Below are positions 2,641 through 53,860 of a stretch of 64,000 nucleotides of DNA, piece by piece. Position 1 is the stretch's first letter. Every line of letters begins with the position of its first letter. Under the pieces are notes generated by a model, which was not told where the DNA came from, searched no databases, and saw only the letters and a program-made list of their open reading frames with translations. A program made the translations under genes and the position numbers. Origin of the DNA: Omnitrophica bacterium GWA2_41_15 (lineage in GTDB: Bacteria; Omnitrophota; Gorgyraeia; Ghiorseimicrobiales; Ghiorseimicrobiaceae); NCBI GenBank assembly GCA_919902105.1, contig CAKKQO010000023.1, forward strand, positions 2,128-66,127, read 5' to 3'.

Positions 2641-5148
<2,508 letters not shown>

Positions 5149-5188: not shown

Positions 5189-5360
5189 ATAATGAAAATT
5201 TTATGCGCCGCACGGAAATTTTTTGCCGACTGCTGCGATTTACAACTCGCAAATTTGCCGAAATTCCCTTACGGTCAGTTTCGGCATTTACTCATTGTAA
5301 TCTCTGGCAGTCTTTTGCCAAAAAATTTCTAATTGTGCTTGCTCATAAAATTTTCATTAT
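5189..5360. repeat. About 172 nt whole-length imperfect hairpin element (element E)
   Basis: Perfect 17-bp terminal inverted repeat, ATAATGAAAATTTTATG (5189-5205) with CATAAAATTTTCATTAT (5344-5360). Inner arms are also complementary (GAAATTTTTTGCCGACTGC / GCAGTCTTTTGCCAAAAAATTTC). Central hairpin TGCCGAAA..TTTCGGCA. Confidence 0.8.
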
Positions 5361-6195: not shown

Positions 6196-6597
6196 ATGAT
6201 TGAGGAGGCAGTTAAGAATCGTATAATTTTAATCGTGAGCACTCTGTGTTTGATATTTTTCTTCTGGGCTATTGGAGCGCACAGCGAAATAGGCAAATAT
6301 AAGAAGAATATGCAGGACGAAATCAGGAAACGTATAGAGATGGAGGAGCAGAACACAAATTTCTTGAAAGAAAAATCTAACTTTGTGGAAAGTATCAAAC
6401 AGTTAACCGCCCAATTAGAAGAAGAAAAAGCAGTAAATCAAGCTACCAAAAAGGCTTTAGTGGAGGAACAGCTAATGAACGACAGCCTTAAGCAGGAAGT
6501 AGAAAAAGAGGCCCGGCTTAAGCAAGTCATCGAAGAAGATTTGAAAGAGGCATTAATGAAGGATTCGCAGAAACAGAAAAAGCAAGGCTCTCGATAA
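6196..6597 (+). CDS. Membrane-anchored coiled-coil protein, unknown function
   Basis: One N-terminal TM helix followed by an E/K/Q-rich heptad-like sequence. RBS GGAGGAG upstream. Confidence 0.5.
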   Translation: MIEEAVKNRIILIVSTLCLIFFFWAIGAHSEIGKYKKNMQDEIRKRIEMEEQNTNFLKEKSNFVESIKQLTAQLEEEKAVNQATKKALVEEQLMNDSLKQEVEKEARLKQVIEEDLKEALMKDSQKQKKQGSR

Positions 6598-6635: not shown

Positions 6636-6663
6636 AAAACGGGGGATAAAAATCCCCCGTTTT
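6636..6663 (+). terminator. Intrinsic terminator, bidirectional in appearance
   Basis: AAAACGGGGG-ATAAAAA-TCCCCCGTTTT: GC stem flanked by an A-run and a T-run. Confidence 0.65.
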
Positions 6664-6669
6664 GTTAAC

Positions 6670-6789
6670 CCCGTTAGAGATAACACATCTCACTAAGCAA
6701 GCGGGGTTTGATAATTATGGAAGCATGAGTTTTATCGAGCGCAGGATCTTAAAGAGACGGTCGTCTAAAGACGACCTATCTCTAACGGG
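6670..6789. repeat. 120-nt element closed by a perfect 13-bp inverted repeat
   Basis: CCCGTTAGAGATA (6670-6682) pairs with TATCTCTAACGGG (6777-6789). Internal hairpin GGTCGTC-TAAA-GACGACC (6759-6776). The element ends 7 nt before the uppS ATG. Confidence 0.7.
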
Positions 6790-6796
6790 ATAAAAT

Positions 6797-18749: not shown

Positions 18750-19817
18750 ATGCCAACAGGAAGAAAAAAAATACTCACAGATACTTCAGAAGTTAGCGCA
18801 CTCCCCTCAGATTTACTTTTAAAACAAGAGACCGATGAGGATATTGTTTTAAATCTTTCGCTTCGGCCTGCCAAATTATCTGAATTTGTCGGTCAGACCG
18901 GTACTGTAGAGAACTTAAAAATTGCAATTTGCGCCGCCAAAGAGCGCAAAGAGCCGCTGGAACATGTGTTTTTATCCGGGCCTCCGGGCTTGGGCAAAAC
19001 CGCGCTTTCCTATATTATCGCCCATGAGATGGGCACAAAGATTACCGCAACAAGCGGCCCTGCCATTGAGCGGGCAGGCGATTTAATCGGCATACTTACT
19101 AATTTAGAAAAAGGCGATATCCTTTTTATTGACGAGATTCACCGGATGTCTAAGGTAGCGGAGGAGTTTTTATATCCGGCAATGGAAAATTCGCAGATTG
19201 ATTTTATCGTAGATAAAGGCCCATATGCCCGCACCATAAAATTTAACTTAAAAAGGTTTACTCTTATTGGCGCTACCACCAGAAGCGGGCTTTTAAGTTC
19301 GGCGCTGCGTTCGCGTTTTGGCATATTTTACCATTTTGATTTTTATCCCCCTGAAGATTTAGCAAAAATTATCAAGCGCTCGGCGAAGCTTTTAGGCATA
19401 GATGTTAACGATGATGCCGCTTTAGAAATAGCACGGCGTTCGCGCGGCACCCCGCGTGTGGCTAACCGCCTGCTTCGGCGCGTGCGCGATTATGCGCAGG
19501 TAAAATCTAAAAGCAGCCTGATTACCCAGAAAATCGCCGATGAGTCGCTTTCCTGTTTAAGGATAGATAAAAACGGGCTTGATGAATGCGACCGCAAGGT
19601 CCTGCGCACGGTTATTGATGTTTATAGCGGCGGCCCCGTGGGTGTTGAGTCGCTTGCGGCAACACTTAACGAAGAGCAGGATACACTTATCGATACCGTA
19701 GAGCCGTATCTCTTAAAAGCCGGATACTTAAAGCGCACCTCGCGCGGACGCCTCGTTACAAAATTAGCCTACGAGCACCTCGGTGCCAAATACGATAAAC
19801 AGGAAGAGTTGTTCTAA
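18750..19817 (+). CDS. ruvB: Holliday junction branch-migration helicase RuvB
   Basis: LRP..L.EFVGQ, Walker [14 protein letters not shown], sensor [15 protein letters not shown]. Confidence 0.95.
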
Positions 19818-19992
19818 TTTTTTAACGGGTCCTGTCAAGGTTGTGCTTTCGCAAAAACGCTCGGTTTTCTCCAGCGAAGAAAACCTTCGCTCGGCAGTCG
19901 GCGTGCGCTCTGCCGATTTTCATCGGCAGCCATGTCCGCTTTGCGCCTCCTACGTTTTGCTTAAAGCACAAACCTTGCCACCCGCTAAAAAA
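19818..19992. repeat. About 175 nt whole-length imperfect hairpin element (element D)
   Basis: Begins on the base after the ruvB stop. Arms TTTTTTAACGGGT..CAAGGTTGTGCTTT..AAAACG and CGTTTTGC..AAAGCACAAACCTTG..ACCCGCTAAAAAA. Internal hairpins GGTTTTC..GAAAACC and CTGCCGAT-TTTC-ATCGGCAG. Confidence 0.8.
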
Positions 19993-20005
19993 TTGTTAAT
20001 GTATT

Positions 20006-20044
20006 TTGCTAAATCGTCAATTCGCTCAACCGACACAACAATAT
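20006..20044 (+). repeat. Solo 3'-arm-like fragment of the about 208 nt element family
   Basis: TTGCTAAATCGTCAATTCGCTCAACCGACACAACAATAT resembles the 3' arms TTGCTAAAATTGCAATGCGTTCAAGCGACACAATATAT (copy A) and GGCTAAAATTGCAATTCGCTCAAATGACACAGC (copy B). Confidence 0.6.
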
Positions 20045-20201
20045 CCTCTTAGAATATATTTAGCAGAGAAAAAGCGAACTCCGTTTATTAATTGTTACAT
20101 ATAAATATATTAAGGGGGGCGAGATGGAACGAAGGGAAGAGGGACACTCCTTGTAACATATTGTAAATTATAAGGTTACCATTATATTTATAGGTTTATA
20201 A

Positions 20202-21125: not shown

Positions 21126-22288
21126 AAAAATTTAATAATTATAAGTTACGAGTTATAAGTTTAATTATTTTTTTGTTTTTAACTTATCACTTATCACTTA
21201 TCACTTATAATTATTCCTATGCCCAGCCGCAGAAAAGCCGCAATGTGCGCGTGCTCATTCTTAAAGGGGCAGAAAAATTTGACCTCTACATCAGAGGAAA
21301 ATATGAAATACGGTCACCGGACGGGAAAAATGTTATTAAAGAGGGTAAAGGTATAAATGCGAAGGTTTATGCTGATAATAACGCGATAAATATTTCCGAT
21401 ATTCGTATAAATGAAAATAAAATTATAATCTCTCCAGAGTCAGGGATTTTTTATCTCAATAATCGCCCCTTACGCGGCGGGCTAATTGTAAAAAAAGAAA
21501 ATGACTTAACTTTATTAGTAATCAATTATTTAGATTTAGAAGATTATGTTAAAGGGGTTCTTTTCCATGAAGTTTCGCATCACTGGCCGATTGAGGCGAT
21601 TAAGGCGCAGGCAATAGCCACGCGCACGTATGTGCTTTATCAGGTAGAGGTGAGTAAAGATAAAGACTACGATGTAACCAGCGATATTTATTCGCAAGTA
21701 TATGGCGGCAAAGACGCGGAAAGATACCGTACCATTAAGGCGGCAGAGGAAACTGAAGGCGTGGTCTTAACTTGTAAAGCTAAAGTTTTTCCGGCTTATT
21801 TTCATGCTACCTGCGGCGGGAAAACCGAAGATGCAAGCGAATTATGGCAGACAGACCTGCCTGCCTTAAAAGGCGTTGATTGCGGTTTCTGTTTTAAGTC
21901 ACCGCATTTTAAATGGCAGAAGGTATTTAGCAAAGATGAGCTTATAAAAAGGTTAAATTCTTCAGGGTATCGCTTTACTTCTTTAGAGGGCATCCAAATA
22001 TTAGGCCGCGACAAATCAGGCAGAATCAGAAAACTAAAGTTAAAGTCAAAAGATGGTGACGTGTTTATTCCTGCGAAAGATTTCCGCCAGCTCGTAGGCA
22101 CAAGAGTTATCCGTTCTACTAACTTTGCTGTAAATAAATCCGCAGATAATATCTATTTTGAGGGCTTTGGCTGGGGCCATGGCGTGGGGATGTGCCAGTG
22201 GGGGGCATATTTTATGAGCATTAAAAAATATAAGTATCAGGATATCCTTAAGTTTTATTACCCCGGAGCAGAAATAGAGAAAATATGA
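21110..22288 (+). CDS. SpoIID/LytB-domain protein (peptidoglycan remodelling)
   Basis: Motifs LEDYVKGVL..E, AIKAQAIATRTY, CGG.TED, and C-terminal GHGVGMCQWGA. The N-terminal hydrophobic segment is encoded by repeat DNA, so the start is uncertain (TTG 21104 or ATG 21110). Confidence 0.85.
   Translation: MVPSIKKFNNYKLRVISLIIFLFLTYHLSLITYNYSYAQPQKSRNVRVLILKGAEKFDLYIRGKYEIRSPDGKNVIKEGKGINAKVYADNNAINISDIRINENKIIISPESGIFYLNNRPLRGGLIVKKENDLTLLVINYLDLEDYVKGVLFHEVSHHWPIEAIKAQAIATRTYVLYQVEVSKDKDYDVTSDIYSQVYGGKDAERYRTIKAAEETEGVVLTCKAKVFPAYFHATCGGKTEDASELWQTDLPALKGVDCGFCFKSPHFKWQKVFSKDELIKRLNSSGYRFTSLEGIQILGRDKSGRIRKLKLKSKDGDVFIPAKDFRQLVGTRVIRSTNFAVNKSADNIYFEGFGWGHGVGMCQWGAYFMSIKKYKYQDILKFYYPGAEIEKI
21134..21215. 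repeat. Inverted-repeat plus heptamer-tandem block at the 5' end of the SpoIID-like gene
   Basis: AATAATTATAAGT (21134-21146) pairs with ACTTATAATTATT (21203-21215). ACTTATC x3 tandem at 21182-21202. AAGTTAC GAGTTAT AAGTTTA heptamers. Confidence 0.75.
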
Positions 22289-22301
22289 AGTTTTACTAGA
22301 A

Positions 22302-22506
22302 ATATATTATGTCGTTTTCACTTAGATGCAATTTTTTAACGCAAAGGTCTTTCACAATTTCGGTGGCTGCGGAACTCGTTCTTCGGCACCTTCGTGCCAA
22401 GAATGAACTCAAACATCCTCGCCACCCCGATATAGACCATCGGGGTTCCCGCAATTCCTCAAGCTGCTTTGCTAAAATTGCAATGCGTTCAAGCGACACA
22501 ATATAT
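22302..22506 (+). repeat. About 205 nt whole-length hairpin element, family copy A
   Basis: Terminal arms ATATATTATGTCG / CGACACAATATAT. Shared core CTGCGGAACTCGTTCTTCGGCACCTTCGTGCCAAGAATGAACTCAAACAT. Internal hairpin CCCCGAT..ATCGGGG. Confidence 0.9.
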
Positions 22507-22532
22507 TTCTTCTAATAAATTAATTAAAAAAT

Positions 22533-23558
22533 ATGAAACTCTCCGATTTTGATTACAATTTGCCTAAAGAATTAATCGCTCAGTATCCGTCAAATGTGCG
22601 TGATGCCAGCCGCCTTTTGGTAGTAGATAGAAAAAATGAAAGTATTGCGCATAAAAAATTTTCCCGGATACTGGAATATTTTAATCCGGGGGACCTGCTG
22701 GTTTTAAATAACAGTAAAGTTCTGCCGGCACGTGTATTCGGCAGAAGAGAAAAAACCGGAGCAAAAATAGAATTTTTGTTAATTAAAAAAGAAGGCGGCA
22801 CTTTTTCGGTAATGGTAAAACCGGCAAAAAAATTTCAAATCGGAGAAAACATTGTTTTTGGCGAAAATAACGGCGGGCTTTATGCAAAAATAGTAGATAA
22901 AAATAAAATTGCTTTTGAGAGAGGTAATCCCGATGAAATTTATAAGCTCGGAACAATGCCGCTTCCCCCATATATTAAAAGGAATTCCGAAGGATTAGAT
23001 TTTGAAAGGTATCAGACAGTTTTTGCTAAAATTCCCGGTTCAATTGCCGCCCCAACCGCGGGGTTACATTTTAGTAAAGAGCTATTAGGCGAAATTAAGG
23101 ATAGAGCCGTAGAGGTTAACTATGTTACTTTACATGTGGGTGTGGGGACATTTAAGCCGGTAAAGACAGAAGATGTCGCTAAACATAAAATGGAGCCGGA
23201 ATTTTTTGAAATAGGCCCAGAGTTGATAGGAAGTATAAAAAAAGCAAAAAAACAAAAAGGGCGTATTTTTTCCGTAGGGACTACCAGCTGCCGTGTTATC
23301 GAAACAATAACAGAATTACCTATTGTCCATGACTTATCACCTGTAACCCATTCAGGATTTACTAATCTATTTATCTATCCCGGATATAGCTTTAAAGCGG
23401 TAGATTGCCTTTTGACTAATTTTCATTTACCTAAGACCACGCTTTTTATGCTGGTTTGCGCTTTCGCCGGCCGCGAGTTAATTATGCGGGCTTATCAGGA
23501 GGCGATAGAAGAAAAATACCGTTTCTACAGTTACGGCGATGCGATGTTGATAGTGTGA
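22533..23558 (+). CDS. queA: S-adenosylmethionine:tRNA ribosyltransferase-isomerase
   Basis: MKLSDFDY.LP..LIAQ.P, PARL-like, TAGLHF, VGTTS.R..E motifs; 341 aa. Confidence 0.95.
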   Translation: MKLSDFDYNLPKELIAQYPSNVRDASRLLVVDRKNESIAHKKFSRILEYFNPGDLLVLNNSKVLPARVFGRREKTGAKIEFLLIKKEGGTFSVMVKPAKKFQIGENIVFGENNGGLYAKIVDKNKIAFERGNPDEIYKLGTMPLPPYIKRNSEGLDFERYQTVFAKIPGSIAAPTAGLHFSKELLGEIKDRAVEVNYVTLHVGVGTFKPVKTEDVAKHKMEPEFFEIGPELIGSIKKAKKQKGRIFSVGTTSCRVIETITELPIVHDLSPVTHSGFTNLFIYPGYSFKAVDCLLTNFHLPKTTLFMLVCAFAGRELIMRAYQEAIEEKYRFYSYGDAMLIV

Positions 23559-23574
23559 CGATATTGTTGAGAAA

Positions 23575-23630
23575 CGTAAAACTGATGGAATTTCTTATTG
23601 TGTGCTTTCAGAAATTCCATCAGTTTTGCG
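23575..23630 (+). repeat. 21-bp stem hairpin after queA
   Basis: CGTAAAACTGATGGAATTTCT - 14-nt loop - AGAAATTCCATCAGTTTTGCG. The single non-Watson-Crick position is a T:G pair on the + strand. Confidence 0.85.
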
Positions 23631-23681
23631 TACCTCTATAATCTTTAACAGAGCCGAACAGGCTGATTTTGTGAGGGGGTA

Positions 23682-27276: not shown

Positions 27277-28971
27277 ATGCTAAGCGATATTGAGATAGCA
27301 CAGGCGGCAAAACTAAAGCCAGTCCAGAAAATAGCCGCATCTATCGGTATCAAAGAAACCGATTTGGAACTATACGGAAAGTATAAAGCTAAAGTTCTGC
27401 CCACTGCTTTAAAAAAGATAAAGACTAAAAGGCAGGCGAAATATGTTTTAGTTACAGCAATTACGCCTACGCCCTTAGGTGAGGGTAAAACCGTAACCAC
27501 TATTGGCCTATCCATGGCGCTAAATAGGATAGGCAAAAAAGCTATTGCTTGTATCCGCCAGCCGTCGCTTGGCCCAGTCTTTGGGATTAAAGGAGGGGCG
27601 GCCGGAGGCGGGTATTCGCAGGTAGTGCCGATGGAAGATTTTAACCTGCATTTAACCGGCGATGTGCATGCCGTAGGACTTGCGCATAATTTATGCGCCG
27701 CTTTTTTGGAGAACGCTTTATTCAGGAAAAAACTTAATATTGACCATAAAGCCGTTTTTTGGCGAAGAGTTCTAGATGTAAGCGACAGGTCATTACGTAA
27801 AATCAGCGTTGGTTTAGATGATAAGGTAGATGGGGTTTATCCCAGAGAGACCGGTTTTGATATTACAGTGGCGTCTGAAATAATGGCAATTTTAGCGCTT
27901 TCAAGTGATCTCCAGGATTTACGCCGTCGTCTCGGCAGGATTGTCTTAGCCAAGACTTTTGACGGTAAATATGTTACCCCTGAAGATTTAAAGGTTGCCG
28001 GCTCAATGGCAGCGCTTTTAAAAGACGCGGTGCACCCAAATTTAATGCAGACTTTGGATAATACTCCTGTCTTTGTGCATGCCGGGCCGTTTGCCAATAT
28101 CGCGCATGGAAATAGCTCTATTATCGCCGATAAAATCGCGGTAAGTTTAGCGGATTTTGTAGTAACAGAGGCAGGCTTTGGCGCAGACTGCGGGGCAGAG
28201 AAATTTTTTGATATTAAATGCCGCGTCAGCGGCCTTAAGCCGGATGCGGCAGTTTTAGTCTGCACCGTGCGCGCCTTAAAAATGCACTCTGGTAAATTTA
28301 CGGTTAAGCCGGGCAAGCCGCTTGATGAGGGATTACTCCGTGAGAATCTTCCTGCTATTAGAGAGGGTGCTGCAAACTTAGAAAAACAGATTGAGAATAT
28401 TAAAATTTTTGGTATCCCGGTTGTAGTGACGATTAACAGATTCTCCGCCGATACAGATAAAGAAATCGCCTTAATTAAAGAGATTGCCAAAAATGCCGGA
28501 GCCGAAGATGCGATAGTTAGTGATTTATTCGCCAAGGGCTCAAAAGGCGGAGAGGAATTAGCCGAGAAGATAGTTGAAGTCTCCAAGAAAAAAGCGAATT
28601 TTAAATTTCTTTATGAACTGGATAGCACGATTGAAGAAAAGATGTGGGTAATTGCTACCAAGATTTACGGGGCAAAGGATATTGATATTTCGCCGAAAGC
28701 TTTAGAACAGATAGAAGAATTTAATAAATTAGGTTTTAATGGGCTTCCTCTGTGTATGGCAAAGACGCATTTGTCGCTTTCGCATGACCCGGAATTAAAA
28801 GGACGGCCGAAAGACTTTGTCGTGCCAATCCGCGAAATAAAAGTCTCTGCGGGTGCCGGATTTTTATACGCGCTCTTAGGCGATATGCGCACTATGCCGG
28901 GGTTGCCTTCTGTTCCGGCAGGGACAAAGATAGATATTGATAAAGATGGAAAGATAGTGGGATTGTCATAA
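27277..28971 (+). CDS. fhs: Formate-tetrahydrofolate ligase
   Basis: SDIEIAQ, TPTPLGEGKTT, GIKGGAAGGGY, and PLCMAKT.LS.S near the C-terminus; 564 aa. Confidence 0.97.
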   Translation: MLSDIEIAQAAKLKPVQKIAASIGIKETDLELYGKYKAKVLPTALKKIKTKRQAKYVLVTAITPTPLGEGKTVTTIGLSMALNRIGKKAIACIRQPSLGPVFGIKGGAAGGGYSQVVPMEDFNLHLTGDVHAVGLAHNLCAAFLENALFRKKLNIDHKAVFWRRVLDVSDRSLRKISVGLDDKVDGVYPRETGFDITVASEIMAILALSSDLQDLRRRLGRIVLAKTFDGKYVTPEDLKVAGSMAALLKDAVHPNLMQTLDNTPVFVHAGPFANIAHGNSSIIADKIAVSLADFVVTEAGFGADCGAEKFFDIKCRVSGLKPDAAVLVCTVRALKMHSGKFTVKPGKPLDEGLLRENLPAIREGAANLEKQIENIKIFGIPVVVTINRFSADTDKEIALIKEIAKNAGAEDAIVSDLFAKGSKGGEELAEKIVEVSKKKANFKFLYELDSTIEEKMWVIATKIYGAKDIDISPKALEQIEEFNKLGFNGLPLCMAKTHLSLSHDPELKGRPKDFVVPIREIKVSAGAGFLYALLGDMRTMPGLPSVPAGTKIDIDKDGKIVGLS

Positions 28972-29180
28972 GATAGCTGCTGTATCATTTTCGCTCAGGT
29001 GCAATTTTTATACGCCAAGTTCTCGGCATTTTAAGCGCCTGCGTAACTCGTTCTTCGGCACTTTCGTGCCAGGAATGAACTCAAACATACTCGGCGTCCC
29101 GCTCTCTGAGCGGGATGCCTTAAAATGCCTGTGCGTGCTTGGCTAAAATTGCAATTCGCTCAAATGACACAGCAGCTATC
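28972..29180 (+). repeat. 209 nt whole-length hairpin element, family copy B
   Basis: Perfect terminal arms GATAGCTGCTGT / ACAGCAGCTATC. Sub-terminal GGCATTTTAAG / CTTAAAATGCC. Shared core CTGCGTAACTCGTTCTTCGGCACTTTCGTGCCAGGAATGAACTCAAACAT. Hairpin CCCGCTC-TCTG-AGCGGG. Confidence 0.9.
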
Positions 29181-29188
29181 TAAACAAA

Positions 29189-29662
29189 ATGATGTACAAG
29201 AATCAATCTCTTAAAAAATATCTCGATGATTTGGCGGGAAAGCTGCCCGCACCCGGAGGAGGTAGTGCCGCCGCCCTTAGCGGCGCTTTGGGTTGCGCGC
29301 TTTTGTCAATGGTATCTAACTTTACCGTTGGCAAAGAAAAATACAGGAAATACGAAAAAGAAATAAAAGGTATTTTATTAAAGTGCGAGAGTTATAGGAA
29401 AAGGTTTTTGGAGTTAGTGGATTTAGATGTTAAAACATATTCAGCTTATGCTAACGCTAAAGACAAAAAATCTAAAAGTATGGCGAAAAAAGAATCGCAG
29501 AGAGTAGCTAAAGAAATTAACTCTTTAAGTTATAAAGCAATACAATTATGTTTTCCTTTGGCGGAAAAAGGCAATATATATTTGATAAATGATGTCTTAG
29601 CCGGCGCGGAACTTTTGAGCGCCGCCTTTAATGCGGCGTTGATTAACATAGAAGCCGAATAA
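29189..29662 (+). CDS. fchA: Cyclodeaminase/cyclohydrolase-family protein (methenyl-THF cyclohydrolase FchA-like)
   Basis: LPAPGGGSAAALSGALGCALLSMV signature. Sits between fhs and folD. At 157 aa it is shorter than typical family members. Confidence 0.75.
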   Translation: MMYKNQSLKKYLDDLAGKLPAPGGGSAAALSGALGCALLSMVSNFTVGKEKYRKYEKEIKGILLKCESYRKRFLELVDLDVKTYSAYANAKDKKSKSMAKKESQRVAKEINSLSYKAIQLCFPLAEKGNIYLINDVLAGAELLSAAFNAALINIEAE

Positions 29663-29684
29663 GTCTATGGTGATAATAATTTTG

Positions 29685-29857
29685 TCCCGCCTCGCCCCTA
29701 GAAATTGCTTCGCAATTTCAGGGACTAAGTCCTCGCAATTCTTCGAATTGCAGAGGGTAAGATATGTCAAAATTCTATCATATAATTTTGACACACTCGG
29801 CGGGATCAATTCCGACATACAAGTTATGTCGCTCCGCGAGCTCCATAACTTGTGTCG
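29685..29857 (+). other. Multi-hairpin structured spacer between fchA and folD
   Basis: A 7-bp closing stem TCCCGCC (29685-29691) / GGCGGGA (29799-29805) encloses three hairpins at 29696-29723, 29732-29755 and 29766-29792. A further hairpin lies at 29813-29857 (CGACATACAAGTTATG..CATAACTTGTGTCG). Confidence 0.65.
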
Positions 29858-31353: not shown

Positions 31354-31698
31354 ATGGTTAAGAAATTAAATTTTTTGACGGCCTTGGTCACTTTCATCGC
31401 AGCGGTTATAGGATTAATCATAGGGATTCAAAATAGTACTAAAATTGTATCTCTGACAGCGAATGTTAATTCAAATAATATTCGTGTTAACGCAGATTTA
31501 AATAATATAAGCAATAAAATCATATCTATCAATAAAGATATCACGACTATTCGTGGTGATGTTAAGAATGCCGCGGGTATGAAAATAACTGCTATAGGTG
31601 GTGGTCAAGGCGATGTTACCGGTATGAGTGTAACAGCGATTGGTGATGGCAAGAGTAATATTACAGGCTTAGAAGTTGATACTATAATTGGGGAATAG
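31354..31698 (+). CDS. Small membrane-anchored repeat protein, unknown function
   Basis: One N-terminal TM helix, an N-rich middle, and C-terminal 15-aa tandem repeats GMKITAIGGGQGDVT / GMSVTAIGDGKSNIT / GLEVDTIIGE. Confidence 0.5.
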   Translation: MVKKLNFLTALVTFIAAVIGLIIGIQNSTKIVSLTANVNSNNIRVNADLNNISNKIISINKDITTIRGDVKNAAGMKITAIGGGQGDVTGMSVTAIGDGKSNITGLEVDTIIGE

Positions 31699-31701
31699 AA
31701 A

Positions 31702-32004
31702 ATGTTATCACGAAATAAAATTATAGAAATTTTAAAAAAAGAATTTCCGCGCTTAAAAGCTGAATTTAGCGTAAAAAAGATAGGTATTTTTGGCTCCTAT
31801 GCGACGGGTGCGGCGGGGAAAGCCAGCGATGTGGATATTTTTATAGATTTTACAAAACCCATAGGCCTTAAGTTTATGGATTTAGCCGAGCATTTAGAAA
31901 AAATATTGGGGAAAAAGGTAGATATCTTGACTCCTGCCGGCATAAAGGGCATAAGAATAAAACAAATCTCTCAAAGCATTAAGAAAAGTTTAATCTATGT
32001 CTAA
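31702..32004 (+). CDS. mntA: MNT-type nucleotidyltransferase antitoxin
   Basis: GIFGSYATG...SDVDIFIDF (GS-x-G / DxD minimal nucleotidyltransferase motif). 100 aa. Overlaps the next gene by 8 nt. Confidence 0.85.
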   Translation: MLSRNKIIEILKKEFPRLKAEFSVKKIGIFGSYATGAAGKASDVDIFIDFTKPIGLKFMDLAEHLEKILGKKVDILTPAGIKGIRIKQISQSIKKSLIYV

Positions 32005-32341
32005 AAGAGCGGACAAGGATTTACTTAGCGATATCAAAGAATCTATCCTGCGGATAAATAGATATAGCGATAAGGTAACTTATGCGGAATTTATGCGGGA
32101 TACCAAAATCCAGGATGCGGTAGTGCGTAACATTGAAATTATCGGCGAGGCGGTAAAGAATTTATCTGAAGCAGAAAGAAGAAAGTATCCAAAAGTCCCA
32201 TGGAAAGAGTTAGCCAAAATGAGAGATAGGCTTATTCACCATTATTTCGGGGTTAATTACGAAATTGTTTGGAGTATAATCAGAGAAGAATTACCGAATA
32301 TTGCGGCAGGGCTTAAGATGAGTAGCGGGGGATTAAAATGA
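31997..32341 (+). CDS. hepT: HEPN/DUF86 RNase toxin
   Basis: R-x4-H motif (RDRLIHHYF). 114 aa. Classic MNT-HEPN pair order. Confidence 0.85.
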   Translation: MSKRADKDLLSDIKESILRINRYSDKVTYAEFMRDTKIQDAVVRNIEIIGEAVKNLSEAERRKYPKVPWKELAKMRDRLIHHYFGVNYEIVWSIIREELPNIAAGLKMSSGGLK

Positions 32342-45779: not shown

Positions 45780-45789
45780 TACTATAAAG

Positions 45790-45997
45790 CAGGTTATTAT
45801 TCATTTTGAACGATTTGCAATTTTCGTCAGGAGTCGTAGAGATTTTAAGGTTCCCCGCCAACGGCGGGGCGCCGAGGACTGTCTGAATTCATTCCTGGCA
45901 CGGAACGTGCCGAAGAATGAGTTCCGCAGGTGCCTTAAAATATCGAGAAGCTGACGTTAAAAAATTGCATCAGAGTGAAAAATGACATAATAACATG
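45790..45997 (-). repeat. 208 nt whole-length hairpin element, family copy C (inverted relative to A and B)
   Basis: The reverse complement aligns with copies A and B: core CTGCGGAACTCATTCTTCGGCACGTTCCGTGCCAGGAATGAATTCAGACA, hairpin CCCCGCC-GTT-GGCGGGG, arms CAGGTTATTATTCATTTT.. / ..GAAAAATGACATAATAACATG. Confidence 0.9.
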
Positions 45998-46025
45998 CTG
46001 TATGCTATGATGATTAATTAGTTTT

Positions 46026-53482: not shown

Positions 53483-53687
53483 ATTTAAGAATTTAACTTA
53501 CAGAACAATAATGAATGTAAGTTGATTCTCCGAATTTATCCCCATTCGAAATTGGGAAGAAGGAATAACATATGACTCCTTGCTTAGGCGCTTGAAAATT
53601 TTTTGCTTCGCTTCAAAATTTTCTACGCAAGCTTCGGAGTTAAAATTACCCCGCCTTATGAGCGGGGAAATTTTAAGGAGGATTAAA

Positions 53688-53837
53688 ATGGCAGAAGAGG
53701 GATATTGTGTAAAGTGTAAAGCTAAGAAAATAATGAAAGATGAGCAGAAGGTGACAATGAAGAACGGCCGCGCGGCAGCAAAAGGTAAATGCCCGGATTG
53801 CGGTACAGGGATGTATAAGATATTAGGCAAAAAATAA
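53688..53837 (+). CDS. Small zinc-ribbon protein (DUF5679-like)
   Basis: CVKC ... CPDCG in 49 aa. AAGGAGG RBS 7 nt upstream. The longer ORF from 53580 is not supported. Confidence 0.6.
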   Translation: MAEEGYCVKCKAKKIMKDEQKVTMKNGRAAAKGKCPDCGTGMYKILGKK

Positions 53838-53860
53838 TTCATCAGTTAGCATGGTACAAA

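Follow-up and report, generated by a model that had tools for sequence, protein, structure and literature searches.

A dispersed family of end-to-end hairpin repeats in groundwater Omnitrophota, probably a foldback type of mobile DNA

Directly downstream of fhs, in a 64,000-nt stretch of the Omnitrophota contig CAKKQO010000023.1 (the window, in what follows), lies a non-coding hairpin in the spacer between fhs and fchA. The fhs open reading frame (ORF; 27277–28971) ends in TAA and the hairpin begins on the next base, 28972. This is copy B of a repeat whose copies A and C stand in the spoIID–queA and trpG–trpD spacers of the same window (Table 1). All three lie between co-directional housekeeping genes (fhs–fchA–folD, the trp operon, queA); the flanks of copy C were identified by Pfam as trp operon genes. 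The source contig of the window is 85.5 kb long, comes from Hainich groundwater (ENA ERZ1292641) and carries the NCBI label Candidatus Omnitrophota. An initial annotation, made from the sequence alone, had described a dispersed hairpin family whose first copy starts directly after the fhs stop, and had read the compensatory changes in its stems as selection on an RNA or DNA cruciform, not as a known MITE- or REP-like repeat. The family and its conserved architecture were confirmed. The interpretation was not, as evidence for mobile DNA and the symmetry of the two strands point elsewhere. We consider the elements to be, with a probability of about 0.68, non-autonomous mobile DNA of the MITE type (miniature inverted-repeat transposable elements), that is, a foldback, full-length palindromic repeat of a narrow clade of groundwater Omnitrophota.

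Copy B had been described as self-complementary throughout. Here GATAGCTGCTGT is complementary to ACAGCAGCTATC and GGCATTTTAAG to CTTAAAATGCC, and both of the central hairpins are present. The minimum free energy fold of 28972–29180 is a single end-to-end hairpin with two small hairpins at its centre, with an energy of −97.9 kcal/mol; dinucleotide shuffles average −53 (z −11.5), and 0/200 of them equal it. Copies A and C, found where the annotation had placed them, likewise fold end to end (z −8.0 and −7.1). The arms pair over about 70 nt, there are about 76 pairs per copy, and the asymmetric centre of about 80 nt is made of the two hairpins. When A, B and C were aligned, the mean column identity was 77–79%, and the annotated readings of the common core and of the GC-rich hairpin in its three versions were borne out. 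In the window genome the arms have the sequence TTATTRTGTC...TTTTCRCT...TGCAATTTTT.

A covariance model was built from four copies and scanned over the window with filters off. Exactly three full matches were obtained (214–232 bits). The remainder scored no more than 31 bits and were reverse strands of the copies or generic hairpins, the best of them (31 bits) being the reverse strand of copy B. The element is 205–240 bp long and non-coding: no reading frame is open or conserved across the copies, as had been claimed, and a six-frame composite query made of the translations of six elements, meant to pick up spurious ORF calls on related elements, returned nothing at E ≤ 0.001 from a database of 5.8 billion proteins.

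Table 1. Positions in the window of the three full copies, their parts and a related element
Feature	Position	Strand	Description
Copy B (reference)	28969–29185	+	fhs–fchA spacer; covariance-model match 231.7 bits; fold z −11.5
Hairpin of copy B as first described	28972–29180	+	
Conserved 49-nt core, copy B	29039–29087	+	CTGCGTAACTCGTTCTTCGGCAC-TTTC-GTGCCAGGAATGAACTCAAACA; hairpin, with one bulge and two G-U pairs that are conserved
GC-rich local hairpin, copy B	29098–29114	+	CCCGCTC-TCT-GAGCGGG; pairing retained, sequence changes with each subfamily
Copy A	22296–22514	+	spoIID–queA spacer; covariance-model match 214.1 bits; fold z −8.0
Left 10-bp direct repeat of A	22280–22289	+	AAAATATGAA; includes spoIID stop codon TGA
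Right 10-bp direct repeat of A	22528–22537	+	AAAATATGAA; includes queA start codon ATG
Copy C	45784–46000	−	trpG–trpD spacer in trp operon; inverted relative to flanking genes; covariance-model match 224.1 bits; fold z −7.1
Related element F3	19816–20045	+	downstream of ruvB; fold z −6.6; repeat family D2

Outside the window three more copies were found, making six copies in four genomes. The core pattern TCTTCGGCAC-N4/5-GTGCCARGAATG had a sole match in species-representative genomes, copy D in another Omnitrophota metagenome-assembled genome (L001), where both neighbouring genes are read in the direction opposite to that of the element. Model searches of loci fetched around orthologous genes yielded copy E (173 bits), upstream of metF in relative L004 (fhs 91% identical), and copy G (119 bits), in the trpG–trpD spacer of relative L020 (trpD 84% identical). 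Neither the core pattern nor the arm pattern TTTTCRCTYNGRTGCAATTTTTWWACG had any match in metagenome contigs or in viral contigs, and a blastn search ('distant' mode) with copy B gave no match to plasmids or phages. In keeping with the initial annotation, which had recognised no named family, Rfam, whose families include 6S RNA, riboswitches, HEARO/omega RNA and group II intron domains, gave no match over the whole window at gathering thresholds, nor on 28940–29210 at E ≤ 10. A further stretch of the source contig, about 9 kb on the right of the window and about 2 kb on its left, held no additional copies. The family thus looks confined to a narrow clade of groundwater Omnitrophota; the six known copies come from genomes covered as fragments.

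Comparison of orthologous spacers, which the annotation had proposed, revealed that the sites are occupied in some genomes and empty in others. The site of copy A is empty in L004, where spoIID and queA overlap as ATGA. That of copy C is likewise empty in other relatives: trpG and trpD abut without a spacer in L016 and L018, and 18 unrelated nt separate them in L021. In the window, no element stands at the point orthologous to that of copy E, upstream of metF. Between fhs and fchA there is 1 nt in L007; elsewhere this spacer has different occupants, namely copy B in the window, a 190-nt hairpin of another family in L006 (fhs 95% identical), and further hairpin sequences in L004 and L014. The flanks joined across B (TAAGA+TCTAAACAAAATG) match the L006 flanks joined across its own element (TAAGACCTAACAAAATG), indicating that the two elements entered one ancestral spacer of about 13 nt independently and at different points. 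Judging from these joined flanks, the inserted DNA of copy B would run from about 28974 to 29178, inside an ancestral GA/TC two bases past the fhs stop.

The copies also differ in orientation: A, B, E and G point the same way as the genes around them, C and D the opposite way, and the trpG–trpD spacer is occupied by oppositely oriented copies, C in the window and G in L020. The closest pairs are A and E (0.72), C and D (0.75) and, for the arms, B and G (0.83), and in no pair do the two members share a locus or a genome.

An exact 10-bp repeat, AAAATATGAA, stands on both sides of copy A, and 4/300 flank shuffles reach its score. The empty site in L004 holds a single copy of this 10-bp sequence, in which the spoIID stop overlaps the queA start, while in the window the left repeat provides the spoIID stop and the right repeat the queA start. 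The inserted DNA of A probably runs from 22290 to 22527, and is longer than the hairpin. Copy G is flanked by an exact 9-bp repeat, ATAAATATG, again spanning a stop and a start (19/300 shuffles). By eye, a 2-bp TA or 3-bp TAA duplication would suit B, G and the L006 element and neither suits A, a comparison that has no power in such AT-rich flanks. What these results establish is a multi-copy non-coding family of about 210–240 bp with long inverted arms, polymorphic sites, both orientations, subfamilies that cut across loci, and one verified target duplication. Because it is present or absent at orthologous sites, lies in both orientations, carries a target duplication and has its nearest relatives at non-orthologous places, we regard the family as mobile DNA.

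Covariation was measured in an alignment of five copies fitted to the model, and the claimed excess of double-sided pair changes was upheld. Standard pairs are formed by 95.2% of cells compared with 81.3% in shuffles; 24 of the 63 pairs changed on both sides and only 3 vary one-sidedly. None of 500 shuffles reached any of the covariation measures, and the signal was lost when the partner column was slid by 1–3 positions. An independent MAFFT/RNAalifold run on four copies gave 22/63 pairs. In an alignment-free test each left arm best fitted the reverse complement of its own right arm, the outer 24 nt of the arms matching at 0.75–0.88 within the same copy versus 0.42–0.75 between copies. The sequence itself is unevenly conserved. 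The 49-nt core is 88–96% identical among copies A–E and the arms are 60–83% identical; 11 of 13 pairs are invariant in helix 8, and 4 of 7 change on both sides in helix 9 (the GC hairpin), where 97% of cells are paired. Copy G is without the 49-nt core and has a short CCC/GGG hairpin in its place.

Both strands fold equally well, the reverse often slightly better, and G-U pairs make up only 1–5 of the roughly 76 pairs in each copy, so that no feature singles out a transcribed strand. All four Watson–Crick types are found at single positions with almost no wobble intermediates. These three features speak against selection on a particular RNA and mark the covariation as the product of a DNA-level constraint or process that treats both strands alike. 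Pairing is therefore maintained, yet a host RNA function is not thereby shown, because compensatory change is known in hairpin-forming mobile DNA.

The outermost arms had been described as copy-specific yet complementary within each copy. The pairing within copies holds, but the arms are not strictly copy-specific, since A, C, the fragment downstream of ruvB and, in a relative, G have a common tip, TTATTRTGTC/GACAYAATAA. In L004, the identical tip AATGAATCYGGTAA, with the terminal sequence AATGAATCYGGTAAWTTTT, is common to copy E and to another element (872–1132) whose core is unrelated; the shared terminal stretch is 14–19 nt long and, in the roughly 43 kb covered of that genome, is confined to the four ends of these two elements. 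Insertion into a short palindrome already present throughout the genome was considered and rejected, AATGAATCYGGTAA being restricted to those four ends. Although the data are few, elements of one genome tend to have similar tips and elements of one subfamily similar inner parts, as would follow if each genome had a single enzyme that mobilised several of its non-autonomous families.

The element downstream of ruvB (F3) has the inner-arm module AATTTTTTAACG...CGCTAAAAAATT as in the family, together with a different core. Its left outer arm is deleted, and it retains a family-type right-arm fragment at 20002–20040 (covariance-model match 19985–20051, 20.5 bits). F3 is collinear with the complete version at 872–1132 in L004. 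Compared with L004 872–1200, about 38 nt including the left outer arm are gone from the window, as are 57 nt between two AATTCGCT repeats, and both genomes have a solo right-arm fragment at this locus. Identity between the two genomes is about 50% in the interior of the element and about 85% in the adjacent non-coding flank, and both versions still fold (z about −6).

Measured against the definition of a MITE, which is about 50–500 bp long and non-coding, the element has the size, the lack of coding capacity, the inverted arms, and the dispersal and site polymorphism of one; a flanking duplication is seen at 2/6 copies. In favour of the MITE-type reading, tips common to unrelated cores are also what cross-mobilisation by one enzyme would give. 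On this reading, a transposase encoded elsewhere would recognise the arms and insert the element at a staggered cut of about 9–10 bp. In a compact genome the surviving insertions would be those at gene junctions, where the duplication can regenerate both the upstream stop and the downstream start codon. Pairing along the element might be kept because only well-paired source copies keep transposing, and arm-to-arm correction may also restore it. Once inside an operon, the element would be co-transcribed and fold to an imperfect RNA hairpin of about 100 bp, which RNase III might cleave or which might change the stability of the mRNA, as the Correia elements of Neisseria do; an effect on operon mRNA is plausible. 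Promoter- and terminator-like sites were not enriched near the copies. A weak −10-like hexamer that faces the downstream gene can serve as partner to a TTGCAA conserved in the right arm; we give this no weight.

Several observations weigh against this reading. The 85-kb source contig contains housekeeping genes only and encodes neither a transposase nor an integrase nor a reverse transcriptase, and no autonomous partner came to light; for the window, the absence of transposase and reverse transcriptase had already been annotated. Copies B, C, D and E have no flanking repeat above chance, TA being the most that B might show, which leaves a clear duplication in only two of the six. In A, B and G the conserved interior starts at varying distances from the edge of the insert, which is unusual for precise cleavage by a transposase, and the extreme tips differ even within one genome. 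Ordinary MITEs require terminal repeats only, and a plain MITE leaves unexplained the covariation over the whole length, the 3-way centre common to the subfamilies, a core that exceeds the arms in conservation, and the divergence of the element interior at the ruvB-downstream locus beside a well-conserved flank.

The covariation would be explained best if the element were REPIN-like, a single-stranded DNA hairpin mobilised by a RAYT or IS200–IS605 HUH/Y1 transposase, of which the genome would have one gene, with hairpin stability as a requirement of the substrate. The end-to-end hairpin with arms that co-evolve within each copy, the equal folding of both strands, tips that appear genome-specific and the lack of detectable direct repeats at B, C, D and E all suit this explanation, and compensatory changes are common in REPINs, which are likewise extragenic (PMC3116915). 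It is nevertheless unlikely, since Y1 transposases give no target duplication and the family has an exact 10-bp one at A, checked against the empty site, and a 9-bp one at G. The elements are moreover 2–3 times the length of a REPIN, have a large non-palindromic centre and lack a conserved GTAG or CGTC tag at their ends, and the contig contains no RAYT gene, which could be elsewhere in the genome. We give about the same low credence to an Omnitrophota-specific superfamily with exchangeable arm and core modules, moved or maintained by an undescribed folded-single-strand mechanism that differs from both the classical DDE MITE and RAYT/REPIN, in which the 49-nt core, with its fixed G-U pairs, would be a functional RNA or a protein-binding module used by the host inside operons; it is based on the same tips occurring on unrelated cores in one genome and the same core occurring with different tips across genomes. 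Alternatively, the compensatory pattern could have arisen without selection, if the arms of a quasi-palindrome are copied from each other by intrastrand template switching during replication, perhaps with gene conversion between family members. Such copying, which is compatible with a mobile origin, would account for the 42 cells changed on both sides versus 3 on one side, for transversion pairs (AU, CG, GC and UA at one position) that cannot pass via G-U, for the equal stability of both strands, and for the ruvB-downstream locus, where an interior of about 50% identity beside a flank of about 85% still folds with z about −6 in both genomes. Blanket copying would, however, erase the conserved non-palindromic centre and the asymmetric internal loops, and the subfamily structure across genomes fits descent from diverged source copies. 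As the whole explanation it is improbable; quasi-palindrome correction may well contribute to the covariation.

The initial annotation had named RNA as one possibility. A structured RNA that serves the host would be either a small RNA or a cis-acting part of operons, such as a site of RNase III processing or a 3' stabiliser for the cistron upstream; selection would act on the transcript, with dispersal secondary. The three window copies, standing between co-directional housekeeping genes, are almost certainly transcribed; their folds are very stable, the 49-nt core is 88–96% conserved and keeps its two G-U pairs and bulge on one strand, and Correia elements are documented substrates of RNase III (PMC2649163). 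Against this, close relatives have no element or an unrelated hairpin at the same junctions, so that no gene pair needs it. C and D are inverted relative to their flanking genes, and G and C are opposite within the same spacer. Overall strand asymmetry is absent, G-U pairs are few, copy G lacks the conserved core, Rfam has no match, and promoter- or terminator-like sites are not enriched. We therefore hold a host RNA function to be rather improbable as well. Particular RNA and DNA classes were also considered and rejected. 6S RNA forms an end-to-end hairpin and is linked to a folate gene in gamma-proteobacteria; here there is no Rfam match, three copies are present, including an inverted one, and relatives lack the element. 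A retron non-coding RNA is contradicted by the lack of an adjacent reverse transcriptase. An integron attC site is contradicted by the lack of RYYYAAC/GTTRRRY boxes at the arm positions checked by eye, the lack of an integrase in the contig, and flanks made up of housekeeping operons where gene cassettes would be expected. The GC hairpin is not followed by a T-run and terminator-like sites are not enriched, which speaks against an intrinsic terminator.

Among known systems, the MITE-type reading finds its closest counterparts in the QMITE2-type MITEs of Coxiella burnetii (PMC10969869, PMC5896051). These are non-coding elements of about 150–250 bp with terminal inverted repeats and a core, intergenic placement, fading direct repeats of 7–9 bp and a transcript that folds end to end at low energy (−113.09 for QMITE2 according to the review, PMC10969869). 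The family also agrees with what is published on MITEs in general: they are small and intergenic, end in inverted repeats, have direct repeats that become fainter with age, and give transcripts with very stable folds (PMC10969869). The present family has no sequence similarity to QMITE2, lives in another phylum (Omnitrophota) and has no partner insertion sequence identified here; its arms pair over about 70 nt compared with 23–29 nt, and its core exceeds the arms in conservation. The Correia elements of Neisseria (CREE/NEMIS; PMC2649163, PMC2229807) are similar in being small palindromic repeats that lie either way round within transcription units and have inverted repeats on both sides of a conserved core. 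Co-transcription can make them RNase III substrates (PMC2649163), and their ends can create outward promoter-like hexamers, a point at which the conserved TTGCAA in the right arm of the present family may be compared. They differ in their length of 100–155 bp, their TA duplication, IHF site and hundreds of copies; here copy A has a 10-bp duplication.

REPINs with RAYT (PMC3116915) share with the family the character of hairpin-forming extragenic mobile DNA with common double-sided changes and lineage-specific sequences. They are about 70–110 nt long, consist of two 20–40-nt REPs and a short spacer, make no target duplication and are linked to RAYT, whereas here the element exceeds 200 nt, has an asymmetric centre of about 80 nt and, in at least one copy, a 10-bp duplication, and no RAYT was seen. 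ERIC sequences, or 127-bp intergenic repeat units (PMC2229807, PMC3184786), are again imperfect palindromes in transcribed intergenic regions of operons, in either orientation and variably present among related genomes, with reported effects on mRNA stability; size, sequence and host are different, and the mechanism of ERIC mobility is itself unresolved. In the literature found, no MITE-like repeats are described for Omnitrophota, and a 2026 survey of complete genomes of the phylum makes no mention of MITEs, palindromes or hairpins. The elements are most likely a new family of a known kind, not a new class of RNA.

For annotation, this means treating the hairpins as repeats to be masked, not as genes for non-coding RNA. 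The family provides a clean case of insertion at overlapping stop and start codons that is harmless via a duplication regenerating both. It further offers strong evidence that the two arms of a copy evolve together, and bears on the distinction between selection for the fold and mechanical correction of one arm by the other. With at least four structured intergenic repeat families in a small stretch of genome, mobile hairpins may be a notable source of variation inside operons. Hairpin repeats appear to break short-read assemblies in this clade. The Logan contigs of two relatives (L005 and L014) end about 35 nt past the fhs stop, inside the spacer repeat, which suggests fragmentation.

Other structured repeats were seen nearby. 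A second hairpin family (172–198 nt) lies at 5189–5360 in the window, after the adenylosuccinate synthetase gene, and at 3349–3546 in L006; the shared blocks are GCACGGAAATTTTTTGCCGAC, GCAAATTTGCCGAAATTCCC and TGCCAAAAAATTTCTAATTGTGCTT, and the L006 copy, in the fhs–fchA spacer, is flanked by (C)TTAA on both sides. The fchA–folD spacer (29680–29763) holds a repeat, TTGTCCCGCCTCRCCCCTAGAAATTG...CAATTTC.AGGGACTAAGTCCTCGCAATTCTTYGAATTGCAGAGGGTAAGAT, that recurs in the ribBA–ribH spacer (L008 21035–21135), about 8 kb past the right end of the window. Right after queA (23563–23642) stands a strong local hairpin, whose 33-nt arms show 85% complementarity around a loop of 14 nt; its sequence has no relation to that of the family. 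Following a gene that ends at 6597, a hairpin with a GC stem and A and T runs (6637–6663; AAAACGGGGGAT...ATCCCCCGTTTTG) resembles a bidirectional terminator and is in turn followed by a 125-nt hairpin (6670–6794) with arms CCCCGTTAGAGATA and TATCTCTAACGGG. About 7 kb to the right of the window, at L008 19600–19790, a structured leader upstream of ribBA may be FMN riboswitch-like, as judged by eye.

Upstream of metF, the window carries three small genes (31354–32341) that encode a 114-aa protein of unknown function, an MNT-like nucleotidyltransferase and a HepT-like protein, the last two being a toxin–antitoxin pair. The orthologous position in L004 is without these three genes and has copy E instead. 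Nearly all long ORFs of the window (1–64000) are on the forward strand, the exceptions being rpmB (L28) near 57.6 kb and possibly the ORF at 53498–53842. Many neighbouring genes overlap or abut, and almost every spacer longer than 100 nt holds a structured repeat.

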